A stretch of 64,000 nt of DNA from an uncultured Candidatus Saccharibacteria bacterium (GCA_943914775.1 CALUDH010000006.1:5291-69290), one strand, 5' to 3'; numbered from the stretch's first letter, positions 51,715 to 54,861 are shown. Program-made: numbers and translations. Notes: generated by a model from the sequence alone, not told the origin.

Positions 51715-54700
51715 ATGAACCACGCTAGCATTTTAAGTGAAATAGTTAAGACAATAAAAGAGCTTGATGAAAAACAAACACTATATATTCTCAAGGGATT
51801 TAATTTTATATCTGACCAGTTAGAGCAACTGGATTTCTTATTCCTAAAAGATGAAGTTGTTACAGAGACAAATTTTGACTCACAAAATAACCTTCGAAAG
51901 CTACTATCAGGCGATAAGGCGTTCTTTGCTTGGTATGAAGACCTAATTTTTCTTGATATAAATCAAAAGATTGGCGGTGTAAAGGACTTTACGAACTATA
52001 CAATCAAGATAATTGAAAACGATCTGTTTTTTAATTATTATCCAGACTTTAATTCTGTGAATGTAGGTGATAAATACTTAAAATACAACGCCGATACAGA
52101 CAATATTGTTCAGCTGTATTATGGCGATATTGCGATCGACAACAACCAAGCATTTGTCGTCTATAACGATGTATCCGACAAAGAGATAACAAAAATCAAA
52201 ATATCTGAATTATTACCGACAAACTTTGTTAGTGGTGATGGCGAAATTGTCGAAATGCCGGAGGAAAGCGATAATATCTCATTTGCAGTATTAGTTAAAG
52301 AGATTATCAGCAAAAATGTAACTGAAATAACGATTTTAAAAACAAGCGATAGTCAAGATGTAAAAATTAAAAACCTAACAAAACTACTTAAATCGTTAGG
52401 CGTTAAAATATCTGCACGCAAATATTCAACGTCAACTTACAAAGTTGATGATACCGATTACGACCAGTATGAAGCTATACTGAAGCGAAAGAATGACAAT
52501 TTTAAATTTAAAGACCTAAAAATATACAAGGACCCATATGAGGGCAATGAACTGATTAATATTAATCAATCAGTAATCGTAGATAAAATCGTCAAAAATG
52601 TTGAACTGGCACAAAGAGAAGAATCTTTCCGAGATATTTTTGTGACAGCCCCCACTGGCTCTGGTAAGTCTGTAATGTTTCAAATACCAGCAGTATATAT
52701 TGCTGAAAAATATGATTTACTGACAATAGTAGTCACTCCTTTGATAGGCTTAATGAATGATCAAGTAGTAAACATTAAGGCACTAACCGAAAAAGCGGCA
52801 ACCATTAATTCTGATTACACACCGATAGAAAAAGAGCAGACTCTAGAGAGAGTCAAAAGCGGCGAGGTGTCAATACTATATCTATCGCCAGAATCACTAC
52901 TTTCAAACACCGATATCACAAATCTTATTGGCGAACGCAAGATTGGTCTAGTAGTGGTTGACGAATCACACATTGTAGCGACTTGGGGCAAAAGTTTCCG
53001 TCCTGATTATTGGTACTTAGGTGATTTTATAGCCAAACTACGCAATAGCGAAAAGAGTGATCATCATTTTCCGATCGCTACTTTTACGGCAACATCAACA
53101 TTTGGCGGTGATGACAATATGTATTCCGATATTGTTGAATCACTAAAAATGACTGCAGAAAAGTTTATCGGTAATGTAAAGCGAGATGATATCGTGTTTG
53201 ATATTCGTCATCACACAAAAGACCACGCCTATAAAGAGGAAAAGCTTGAGACTGCCGCCAAAGAAATAAACAAATTACAAAAAACAAAAGATAAAACTCT
53301 TGTCTATGTACCATATACTAGCCATATTACTGATCTTATGGCAAAAATGGATGACCAGACTAAAGTTGGTAAGTATTATGGCGGAATGTCAGCGGGTGAA
53401 AAAAATGAAACTTTGGAAAAGATTAAAACTGGTGAAGAGAATATCATTCTAGCGACAAAAGCATTTGGTATGGGAATTGATATTGATGATATTAAGAATG
53501 TGTATCATTTTGCTCCAACTGGCAACATCGCCGATTATGTACAGGAGATCGGTCGTGCCGCTCGCAAAAATGGCATGACTGGCGTAGCGGCAACAGATTT
53601 TTATAAAGAAGATTTCCGCTATATAAATCAGTTATACGGTATGTCCAGTATTAAACACTGGCAAATTATAGCTGTTTTAGAAAAGATTTTTGACATCTAC
53701 CGCCGTAAGAATAAGCGTAACTTCCTTGTATCTCCTATGGAATTCTCATATATCTTTAACGATGTACCGCCACATGAAATTGACGCAAAATTAAAAACTG
53801 CCTTACTTATCATTAAAAAAGACTTTGAAATACAAAGTCGATCTAATTACATACCACTGATATTTAAGCCAAGGAGTATGTTTACTAATGGCTATTTCAT
53901 GGTCAATGATGAAATGATAGACACACTGAAGCGGTTTGGAGTATGGCAGTTCTTTAAGAAACTTAATTTACCTCGCAAAGTAGAAACTATAAGAGATGGC
54001 TTACTAACGACCATATATTCACATGGTGATACTTTTGTACTCGATTTTAAGAAGCTATGGGAAAATAAGTACAAAGATATGTCGTTCGCTAGTTTTAAGC
54101 ATAATTTCTTTTCTAATACATTAGACAGGGATTTTAAAGTAGGTGAAAAGCTAGTTGCAAGATCAATTATTCAAATCAATGGAGGCGACGTTAAGTTTAG
54201 TGAAATAAACAATAGATTAACTGCTACTATGAATAGTTTACAGGAAATTCTTGATGAACTTCGTCAAAATAATAAGCATTTTACTATCAAAGAATTAGCG
54301 AAGCGTATTCGTGAAAAGACTACCATTAAAAAGCCCTACATAGCCGACATGTTGGCACAATCAATCATTCATATACTAAATCGCGTGCCCATTAGTAATT
54401 TTATTCAAAGCCCATTTGCAACATATAACAGCCAGACTGATAAATGGAATATTCAAAATATGACTTATGAAACACGAATAAAACGAATAGTCGGCTCTGC
54501 TTATAGATCTCTGCCACCAGAATCAACACAGACTGTACGATTTACAGGTGCTGACTTAAAGAGCAATCTGGATCTTTTATTAGCGCAGCTTTTAGAAATA
54601 CTGGAGCTTGCAGACGTAAAAATATCTGCTGGCAATAATCCAGAATTCTTCATACGTGTCAACAGTCCTAGTGCTATTGAAAAAATAGTGCGTAATAAAT

Positions 54701-54861
54701 CATATACAAGTAAAACTGTTAGTCTGGTTGACTATAAGCATAAAGAATCATGCCGTCTTATGGAAAAATTCTTTACCGAATTAATAAGCGACGAGGATCG
54801 CTGGAATTTTATTGAACAATATTTTCTAGGAAAAACAGAGGTAATTCCAGCTGAATCATAA
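51715..54861 (+). CDS. RecQ-family DExH (SF2) helicase with large unrecognised N- and C-terminal regions, in an AT-rich island
   Basis: Motif I is TAPTGSGKS. Motif II is VVDESH. The RecQ-diagnostic block is ATWGKSFRPDY. The helicase-C region reads ILATKAFGMGIDI...HFAPTGNIADYVQEIGRAAR. The N-terminal ~300 aa and C-terminal ~400 aa have no recognised motifs. GC is about 33% against about 50% in the flanks. A TATAAT box at 51702-51707 lies 7 nt upstream of the ATG. Confidence 0.75.
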   Translation: MNHASILSEIVKTIKELDEKQTLYILKGFNFISDQLEQLDFLFLKDEVVTETNFDSQNNLRKLLSGDKAFFAWYEDLIFLDINQKIGGVKDFTNYTIKIIENDLFFNYYPDFNSVNVGDKYLKYNADTDNIVQLYYGDIAIDNNQAFVVYNDVSDKEITKIKISELLPTNFVSGDGEIVEMPEESDNISFAVLVKEIISKNVTEITILKTSDSQDVKIKNLTKLLKSLGVKISARKYSTSTYKVDDTDYDQYEAILKRKNDNFKFKDLKIYKDPYEGNELININQSVIVDKIVKNVELAQREESFRDIFVTAPTGSGKSVMFQIPAVYIAEKYDLLTIVVTPLIGLMNDQVVNIKALTEKAATINSDYTPIEKEQTLERVKSGEVSILYLSPESLLSNTDITNLIGERKIGLVVVDESHIVATWGKSFRPDYWYLGDFIAKLRNSEKSDHHFPIATFTATSTFGGDDNMYSDIVESLKMTAEKFIGNVKRDDIVFDIRHHTKDHAYKEEKLETAAKEINKLQKTKDKTLVYVPYTSHITDLMAKMDDQTKVGKYYGGMSAGEKNETLEKIKTGEENIILATKAFGMGIDIDDIKNVYHFAPTGNIADYVQEIGRAARKNGMTGVAATDFYKEDFRYINQLYGMSSIKHWQIIAVLEKIFDIYRRKNKRNFLVSPMEFSYIFNDVPPHEIDAKLKTALLIIKKDFEIQSRSNYIPLIFKPRSMFTNGYFMVNDEMIDTLKRFGVWQFFKKLNLPRKVETIRDGLLTTIYSHGDTFVLDFKKLWENKYKDMSFASFKHNFFSNTLDRDFKVGEKLVARSIIQINGGDVKFSEINNRLTATMNSLQEILDELRQNNKHFTIKELAKRIREKTTIKKPYIADMLAQSIIHILNRVPISNFIQSPFATYNSQTDKWNIQNMTYETRIKRIVGSAYRSLPPESTQTVRFTGADLKSNLDLLLAQLLEILELADVKISAGNNPEFFIRVNSPSAIEKIVRNKSYTSKTVSLVDYKHKESCRLMEKFFTELISDEDRWNFIEQYFLGKTEVIPAES

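Follow-up and report, generated by a model that had tools for sequence, protein, structure and literature searches.

A partner-less RecQ-like helicase of the C3a193 family in an exchangeable slot beside a tRNA-Gln gene of Candidatus Saccharibacteria, a candidate defence gene

In a stretch of 64,000 nucleotides (nt) from an uncultured Candidatus Saccharibacteria bacterium (GCA_943914775.1, CALUDH010000006.1:5291-69290; the whole of this stretch is called the window below), a single open reading frame (ORF) encodes a superfamily 2 (SF2) DNA helicase with a RecQ-like core, lying in a variable slot between a SulP transporter gene and a tRNA-Gln gene. We read this protein, with a probability of roughly 0.55, as an accessory, horizontally exchanged helicase directed against phages or plasmids, and one that lacks a partner at this locus. 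The gene is a further member of a catalogued family, C3a193, in a new setting that is partner-less and flanked by inverted repeats. To our knowledge, Saccharibacteria and other bacteria of the Candidate Phyla Radiation have tiny genomes and few recognised defence systems, and a helicase maintained by selection in a swappable tRNA slot, interchangeable with an island resembling a restriction-modification (R-M) unit, is a concrete candidate for resistance of Saccharibacteria to phages and other foreign DNA. What is new regarding the family itself is its weak link to CRISPR, a family-exclusive C-terminal module with winged-helix matches, the occurrence of the helicase in three genetic configurations, and the finding of no nuclease in it.

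Comparison with PADLOC resulted in a full-length match of the helicase to PDLC01089/C3a193 (“poss. alt. Cas3”; E=1.7e-160, 534 bits, residues 51-1041 against positions 41-982 of the 983-position profile), from which it follows that the two share a three-part architecture of N-terminal region, RecQ-like core and C-terminal region. The C3a193 profile goes back to a cluster, number 193, that Shah et al. described (2018, RNA Biol; PMC6546367), comprising three genes beside type III-B/D CRISPR-cas loci, with Thebr_0949 as representative, and its annotation was made by inference only (Shah et al., 2018). We found no further description of the family in the literature on RecQ-like, NERD and sigma-factor defence systems. 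Members are distributed patchily among Saccharibacteria, Streptococcus, Clostridia, Bacillales, Mycoplasmatota and Bacteroidota; a small number of Firmicutes plasmids also carry the family, with type I R-M genes as neighbours, as do eight IMG/VR contigs. No full-length relative was found in 50,697 deposited phage genomes, and no predicted viral protein structure resembles the whole helicase (template modelling score ≤0.30, core only).

The RecQ-like core is unambiguous. The motifs TAPTGSGKS, VVDESH, TWGKSFRPDY and IGRAAR lie at residues 311, 414, 423 and 612, respectively, so that both an SF2 core and RecQ-type motifs, including the aromatic-rich loop, are present, and the top structural and sequence matches of the core are RecQ helicases. 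Pfam recognises DEAD (residues 305-461) and Helicase_C (510-618) and nothing further at E≤1; even at this permissive threshold no RQC, RecQ_Zn_bind, HRDC or nuclease family was detected anywhere in the protein. The whole helicase contains one cysteine (C1013), and a four-cysteine zinc cluster of the RecQ type is therefore impossible. The NCBIfam RecQ models align to residues 305-647 only, and their scores fall below the curated thresholds, with 181.5 bits against a cut-off of 219.8 for TIGR00614 (recQ_fam) and 207.2 bits against 640.2 for TIGR01389 (recQ). We consequently rejected a canonical RecQ, given the scores, the single cysteine, the lack of an RQC or HRDC match and the accessory nature of the gene. 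An AlphaFold2 model of the whole helicase reached a predicted local distance difference test score of 85.2 and a predicted template modelling score of 0.82. In five comparisons the ratio of nonsynonymous to synonymous substitution rates (dN/dS) was 0.08-0.13 for the whole protein, the core alone giving 0.03-0.06, the N-terminal region (residues 1-284) 0.08-0.20 and the C-terminal region 0.08-0.13; purifying selection thus acts on all three regions, and the whole helicase is therefore functional and constrained.

The regions on either side of the core are family-specific modules. The N-terminal module of approximately 240 residues can be aligned across every subfamily, and the positions conserved in it (G28, F29, E75, P110 and Y136, together with Y252 just beyond its boundary) are mostly hydrophobic or aromatic, with no catalytic-type residues conserved in the family alignment. 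Profile searches of this module against PDB sequences and Pfam scans of individual members returned nothing consistent. A fold search with the predicted C-terminal ~400 residues gave winged-helix matches only, the best being the winged helices of Crp/Fnr, Cdt1 and ORC and not that of the RecQ RQC domain, and no HRDC-like fold was seen among them. The winged helix is a fold that commonly binds DNA. This C-terminal module is exclusive to the C3a193-type architecture, which comprises approximately 430 clusters at 50% identity. A preliminary description of this DNA had proposed a RecQ-like core with the motifs given above, flanked by sequence free of an RQC zinc cluster, an HRDC domain or a nuclease motif, and both statements hold; its view that the flanks belong to no recognised family does not, given the full-length match to C3a193. 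The outcome it had named as contrary to its proposal, ordinary RecQ accessory domains in the flanks together with vertical conservation, is not what we observe, as the best C-terminal fold matches are to winged helices other than RQC, no HRDC-like match was seen and the gene varies between strains.

This variation was evident in same-species contigs, which were chosen by their encoding an identical Erm-like protein. In the ten contigs listed, the slot between SulP and tRNA-Gln holds the helicase cassette in seven and another island in three (L087, L091 and L092). The alternative island, approximately 5.2 kb long in L087, encodes a large serine recombinase frameshifted into ORFs of 52, 141 and 210 residues, an HTH_3 protein, a 296-residue ORF product, an N6_N4 DNA methyltransferase and a DUF3892 protein, and by its gene content looks like a type II R-M unit. 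TGGCTG stands on either side of it, and TGGC on either side of the helicase island; both sequences copy the tRNA-Gln 3' end. In one further contig, L095 (3672-8809), the helicase island and the serine-recombinase island stand in tandem between SulP and tRNA-Gln, and the slot can therefore accumulate cargo as well as exchange it. Homology between the window and the contigs with the alternative island (L087 and L091) stops at 51586 and restarts at 55197, the tRNA 3' end, and GC content drops to 0.33-0.36 over 52-55 kb against approximately 0.47 in the flanks.

Sequence divergence within this group was uneven. Two Saccharibacteria metagenome-assembled genomes (L004 and L014) share ~96% DNA identity with the window over 18 kb, with the cassette 99-100% identical and the flanks at ~95-96%. 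In L084 the cassette differs by 4.4%, as do the flanks, but it is mosaic, with a dS of 0 and a dN of 0.003 in the N-terminal third and a dS of 0.30 in the C-terminal third. Two contigs (L083 and L090) carry a nonsense allele, S996* (TCA to TAA), by which the final 53 residues are lost, and L086 shows two internal deletions in the helicase, corresponding to 53462-53516 and 54455-54587 of the window, which are either genuine or produced by assembly. Between species the helicase is far more conserved than its flanks, which indicates horizontal transfer. The helicase behaves as an exchangeable accessory gene.

Neighbouring genes, clustered for 80 loci of the family, resolved three configurations: the helicase alone, the helicase with a sigma-70-like protein, and the helicase with a NERD+UvrD nuclease-helicase. 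It is alone in most Saccharibacteria loci, and outside Saccharibacteria it is part of a two-gene module in most lineages. In 23 loci, mostly from Bacillales, the gene immediately before the helicase encodes the sigma-70-like protein, and the two genes sometimes overlap; this protein of ~400 residues combines sigma-70 regions 2 and 4 with an N-terminal extension of ~140 residues and matches the C-terminal part of PADLOC MzaA. We found no description of this gene pair in the literature. On the Enterococcus faecium plasmid pW142 it (WP_231411327/WP_227311111) follows directly after hsdS and hsdR. The second partner, a NERD+UvrD-like superfamily 1 (SF1) helicase of ~575 residues, is directly downstream in 13 loci, two of them from Saccharibacteria and the others from Clostridia and Streptococcus (for example L010), and matches PADLOC RTasNERD-Hel (8.8e-65), C3a187 (2.3e-15) and Nhi (2.2e-10), as well as AbiO and GajB, which suggests that this two-gene form pairs the helicase with a nuclease-helicase. 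Comparison of 113 directly adjacent proteins with PADLOC gave MzaA (21), C3a187 (12), Nhi/AbiO/RTasNERD-Hel (11) and type I methyltransferases (6), and among 106 proteins two to four genes away the commonest matches were type I and type II R-M components. Cas families were not among the 25 commonest PADLOC matches of the 219 neighbour proteins (70 relatives). A partner gene hidden in the window was also considered and rejected, since tblastn with all sigma-like and NERD+UvrD partners found only the housekeeping UvrD/PcrA at 7906-8115.

Relatives also occur in mobile elements of Saccharibacteria. A 52%-identical helicase is encoded in a prophage-like contig (L105 5311-12277), with the same arrangement in L015. 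The tape-measure gene immediately precedes it, and an ADP-ribosylglycohydrolase gene on the opposite strand comes next, together with tail genes; accessory genes carried by phages typically occupy such a spot. In several Saccharibacteria (L007, L030 and L031 among them) the helicase belongs to elements that also encode a serine recombinase, a primase-like protein and, beside a putative restriction gene, a cytosine methyltransferase.

Taken together, these associations favour the defence role which the preliminary description had proposed, by way of the hotspot shared with an R-M-like island, the R-M neighbours of relatives, the NERD+UvrD and sigma-like partners, and carriage on plasmids and in a prophage. 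The part of that proposal which likened the protein to Hna or to an effector fusion fails because no effector domain was found and the C-terminal 400 residues give winged-helix matches only. More broadly, a helicase-nuclease fusion of the Hna/Nhi type is not supported, with no nuclease in Pfam and only winged-helix folds in the C-terminal region, the N-terminal module having been compared by sequence only and its fold not searched alone. The low GC content, the slot variation and the 106-nt arms uphold the description of a horizontally acquired, repeat-bounded cassette with a sole gene, and accessory status together with sub-threshold RecQ scores upholds the view that this is not the housekeeping RecQ. 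A stand-alone helicase is what we see in the window and in most Saccharibacteria; it does not describe most lineages elsewhere. Of the two settings in which homologs were to be sought, defence islands and inverted repeats, R-M neighbours were found beside relatives, whereas the repeats are limited to a close Saccharibacteria clade, with nothing showing that they mobilise the gene. PADLOC, suggested as a check of the window, identified the helicase itself as C3a193 and no other dedicated defence system among the matches.

As a mechanism, we propose that the winged-helix module would hold foreign DNA in duplex or branched form (for instance DNA ends, or intermediates of replication or recombination), while the RecQ-like motor would translocate in the 3'-5' direction and unwind the bound foreign DNA or strip it. 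Replication of the invader would then be blocked, or its DNA would be exposed to nucleases. In the two-gene versions the nuclease could be the co-transcribed NERD+UvrD partner; the partner-less version of Saccharibacteria would need a cellular nuclease, unless unwinding alone is enough. Alternatively, the helicase might by itself block replication or recombination. A new reading, less radical than that of a mobile cassette considered below, would make the family an immune effector built on a helicase without a nuclease, able to act by itself or with interchangeable partners (NERD+UvrD or sigma-70-like). Were protection to be demonstrated, the result would be a modular, helicase-centred system in which the sensing and killing steps are genetically separable. 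The sequence evidence is not far outside what defence-island biology predicts.

Several observations weigh against a role in defence. The PADLOC listing of the family rests on proximity to CRISPR in three genomes, which is not reproduced in our neighbour counts. No nuclease or effector domain was found in the helicase, which is unusual for single-gene helicase defence, and the N-terminal module, whose fold alone was not searched, may contain a cryptic enzymatic domain. No other dedicated defence system was found in the window, where PADLOC matched only housekeeping proteins of a generic kind, namely UvrD/PcrA, cysteine desulfurase and ABC proteins. A helicase carried by a mobile element, moreover, often works for that element and not for the host. 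Finally, the searched literature contains no experimental test of any family member, and the case is one of genomic association.

The ends of the cassette bear on how it moves. Its inverted arms measure 106/107 nt and are ~84-86% identical in a gapped alignment (a repeat search alone gave 84 nt at 88%), and a 26-mer from the arms had zero chance matches in 100 shuffles. Because the right arm includes the 3' end of the ORF, the left arm repeats the C-terminal codons of the gene (LGKTEVIPAES*) on the minus strand. The arm sequence occurs at only two sites in the window and, among 82 loci searched, elsewhere only in same-species loci. The island, whose boundaries are set by the same-species comparison, reaches 271 nt past the right arm, and this AT-rich spacer has no match in the alternative island. 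The sequence TGGC is common to 51583-51586 and 55197-55200; it flanks the whole island and not the repeats, it is the tRNA 3' end, and a search at the opposite island end for an att-type direct repeat of the tRNA brought up these 4 nt only. No integrase lies within the helicase island, and searches of the helicase with Pfam, PADLOC and NCBIfam and of its N-terminal module revealed no transposase, recombinase or HUH-type motif. We likewise rejected a structured RNA within the island, as Rfam finds only the tRNA. The outer end of the arm also has a further copy, the third and a shorter one (window 51580-51600 / 55070-55090, ATTTGGCCCACTTTTTATGTT / AACCTAAAAAGTGAGCTAAAT), 86% complementary and located in the spacer 145 nt past the right arm; it could have arisen by chance, the sequence being AT-rich, or could mark where an older boundary lay.

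In 71 loci scored, flanking inverted repeats were significant only in Saccharibacteria, and we therefore rejected the repeat as a general feature of the family. A repeat homologous to that of the window is confined to the clade of at least 82% identity, with z about 40 in same-species loci, and cassettes from other species (L001, L002 and L003; 88-92% identical) have weaker and shorter repeats of 41-77 nt. Arm complementarity decays in related species, and homology of the window to other-species cassettes extends from ~51655-51670 to 54862-54867, that is, over the gene and the inner third of each arm. L026 has a short 22-nt inverted repeat pair. In L018, a 52%-identical Saccharimonadales relative, an unrelated 25-nt near-palindrome (AATTACGTAATATATTACGTAATTC) occurs three times around the helicase (1431-1455, 4766-4790 and 5747-5771), perhaps as an operator, perhaps as a small element that is repeated. 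Arm identity within the window lineage (86%) exceeds that of orthologous arms between lineages (67-78%), but this is a weak measure with a shuffled mean of ~70%, a background which makes the comparison unusable as an indication of concerted evolution of the arms.

The orientation of the cassette also differs among relatives. In the window, as in L001, L003 and L098, the helicase and tRNA-Gln(UUG) are convergent, whereas in L099 (UUG) and L002 (CUG) helicase and tRNA-Gln run in the same direction, the tRNA 3' end facing the helicase 5' end; the presence of both orientations fits either inversion between the arms or insertion either way at tRNA-Gln 3' ends. All same-species contigs spanning the cassette show one orientation (13/13). 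More distant Saccharibacteria relatives lie ~50-350 nt from genes for tRNA-Asn, -Arg or -Gln(CUG) (L006 8648-8722, L012 9598-9672, L016 9833-9909 and L002 9296-9369), and tRNA-adjacent placement therefore recurs in Saccharibacteria. Most simply, the 106-nt repeats arose when the 3' end of the cassette was duplicated in inverted form in this lineage, and they may promote inversion of the cassette; we do not regard them as the ends of an autonomous transposon. The cassette was possibly moved by a serine-recombinase element that was later lost, or possibly by one-sided homologous recombination anchored in the tRNA, in bacteria that naturally import DNA.

That the helicase serves mobile elements instead, in replication, recombination or anti-defence, with the window copy a remnant stranded at a tRNA site after loss of its recombinase, is an explanation we consider unlikely, although it accounts for the relatives in a TM7 prophage, on plasmids and in the elements with serine recombinase, primase-like protein and R-M genes, and for an island at the very tRNA-Gln 3' end where the serine-recombinase island integrates with TGGCTG and where TGGC flanks the helicase island. 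It fits poorly with a prophage copy that sits among structural genes and not in a replication module, with the lack of any full-length relative among the deposited phage genomes or the predicted viral structures, and with a stand-alone chromosomal copy that is under purifying selection in several species with no other element gene; the operon partners, moreover, are defence-type proteins. The nearness of the core to RecQ, the selection on all regions, the housekeeping neighbours in the window and synteny beside tRNA-Gln in several TM7 species would suit a non-canonical repair or recombination helicase, a substitute for RecQ in the Saccharibacteria cell that, for example, processes imported DNA and has no role in conflict. 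We find this improbable for a gene that some strains of one species replace with an R-M-like island, that has nonsense and internal-deletion alleles and a GC content 12 points under that of the genome, that is more conserved between species than its flanks in a manner indicating transfer, that is patchy across Saccharibacteria, Bacillota and Bacteroidota, and whose product scores below curated RecQ cut-offs and has no sequence match to the RecQ accessory domains.

The layout of the cassette resembles that of an insertion sequence, with an arm, a promoter-like hexamer, one long ORF and an opposite arm overlapping the 3' end of the ORF. It is nonetheless very improbable that the repeat-bounded cassette is a transposase-less mobile or invertible unit that homes to tRNA-Gln 3' ends either way, with the N- or C-terminal module supplying breakage and joining or targeting. 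We give hardly any credence to a self-contained cassette whose repeats are functional ends and whose helicase, perhaps via its N-terminal module, moves or flips the segment and targets tRNA-Gln 3' ends. The outer end of the left arm does lie only 3 nt from the island boundary, close relatives do stand beside tRNA-Gln(UUG) or tRNA-Gln(CUG) in both orientations, and the arms are more alike within the lineage than between lineages, weak as that measure is. A helicase without transposase, recombinase or HUH-type motif, whose N-terminal module has no conserved catalytic residues, is difficult to reconcile with such activity, as are a single copy per window and per locus, the lack of a clear target-site duplication other than the TGGC of the tRNA 3' end, an island running well beyond the right arm, the absence of the repeat from other family members, its decay in related species and the uniform orientation among same-species contigs. 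An accessory helicase acting against phages or plasmids accordingly remains our preferred reading.

The coordinates of all features are collected in Table 1. The position of the TATAAT hexamer suggests that the helicase mRNA may be leaderless or nearly so; a scan with the promoter consensus gave a promoter-like site that overlaps it (51687-51716), although sites of this kind are no more numerous in the region than chance predicts.

Table 1. Coordinates of the helicase gene, its parts and the surrounding island (window positions unless a locus is given)
Feature	Position	Strand	Remarks
Helicase gene	51715..54861	+	ORF, 1048 residues, full-length C3a193 family member
N-terminal family-specific alpha/beta module	51715..52434	+	approximately residues 1-240
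RecQ-like SF2 helicase core	52450..53634	+	approximately residues 246-640: motif 0 region, motif I GSGKS, DESH, aromatic-rich loop TWGKSFRPDY, motif VI IGRAAR
C-terminal family-specific module	53635..54858	+	residues 641-1048: Cys-free helical hairpin, beta-rich part, winged-helix domains, conserved terminal alpha/beta part (PEFFIRVN, KHxES)
TATAAT hexamer	51702..51707	+	7 nt before ATG, no Shine-Dalgarno sequence in between
Acquired island, variable slot between SulP and tRNA-Gln	51587..55196		3610 bp, GC 0.346 against 0.469 in the rest of the window
Inverted repeat, left arm	51590..51695	+	outer end 3 nt from island boundary, inner end 20 nt before ATG
Inverted repeat, right arm	54820..54925	-	last 42 nt of ORF including stop codon, and 64 nt downstream
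AT-rich island-specific spacer	54926..55196		GC 0.32; hairpin 54932-55010; terminator-like hairpin 55157-55174 facing the tRNA
tRNA-Gln (UUG)	55197..55271	-	3' end forms the hotspot's right boundary
Alternative island	L087 8862-14084 (locus orientation, tRNA-Gln to SulP, ~5.2 kb)		equivalent to window 51587-55196
Sigma-like and helicase gene pairs	L034, L037, L041, L051, L060, L064, L065, L071, L072, L074, L079 and others; L082 4611-9054		Bacillales, adjoining type I R-M

The neighbours of the island are housekeeping genes, encoding a P-type ATPase, the SulP transporter, tRNA-Gln(UUG), the Erm-like rRNA methyltransferase, a phosphoketolase and an acetate kinase. A second stretch of low GC content (window 40000-43700, 0.385-0.40) contains ordinary-looking genes for a short-chain dehydrogenase, a Fur-like regulator, a thioredoxin, a protein of the uracil-DNA-glycosylase superfamily and a DUF488 protein.

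Compared with known systems, the helicase departs from the RecQ helicases (bacterial RecQ and human RECQ1, WRN, BLM, RECQL5 and RECQL4) in that it is without the zinc-binding subdomain, carries about 240 additional residues at the N-terminus and about 400 at the C-terminus that are peculiar to it, and is encoded by an accessory, horizontally transferred gene and not by a core gene. Whereas the founders of C3a193 adjoin type III CRISPR-cas loci, the window helicase does not: the window has no CRISPR-like repeat array, no Cas families are among the 25 commonest PADLOC matches of its ORFs, and with no array, no cas gene and no Cas enrichment beside relatives we rejected a CRISPR accessory protein or alternative Cas3 at this locus. 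The PADLOC matches to DpdF, PsyrT, BrxH and others cover the helicase core only. PsyrT (RqlH) of the toxin-antitoxin and defence pair PsyrTA and DpdF of the Dpd system, which modifies DNA with 7-deazaguanine, are likewise RecQ-like cores in defence contexts, and their PADLOC matches (177 and 220 bits, respectively) are limited to residues ~305-640, with unrelated flanking modules. In the case of PsyrTA (RqlHI), the match covers residues 308-620 and the adjacent antitoxin gene PsyrA is not in the window, the neighbours being SulP and tRNA-Gln; in the case of Dpd, the match covers residues 305-641, the NCBIfam DpdF score is 145 against a cut-off of 550, and no genes of the dpd cluster (DpdA-K) are in the window. 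The NERD and SF1 UvrD-like proteins represented by Nhi, AbiO and the DRT-associated NERD-helicase are the type of protein that forms the downstream partner of the family in the 13 loci described above, whereas the window helicase itself is SF2 and has no NERD domain.

With an insertion sequence or transposon the cassette shares terminal inverted repeats, whereas an encoded transposase and multiple copies are absent. Beside recombinase-borne tRNA islands the picture is mixed: the island lies at a tRNA 3' end, yet it has no integrase and its one direct repeat is 4 nt long, although the alternative island at the same point does have a (frameshifted) serine recombinase and TGGCTG. Chromosomal hotspots with alternative cassettes, among which integration sites beside tRNA genes form one class, include the “minimal mobile elements” of Neisseria and the defence hotspots of Pseudomonas and E. 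coli. Like these, the slot described here has fixed flanks, the SulP terminator and the tRNA-Gln 3' end, and alternative cargo according to strain; unlike them, the helicase island is without a recombinase, and on one side its limit is a 106-nt inverted repeat into which the 3' end of the gene extends, an uncommon trait in islands of this type.

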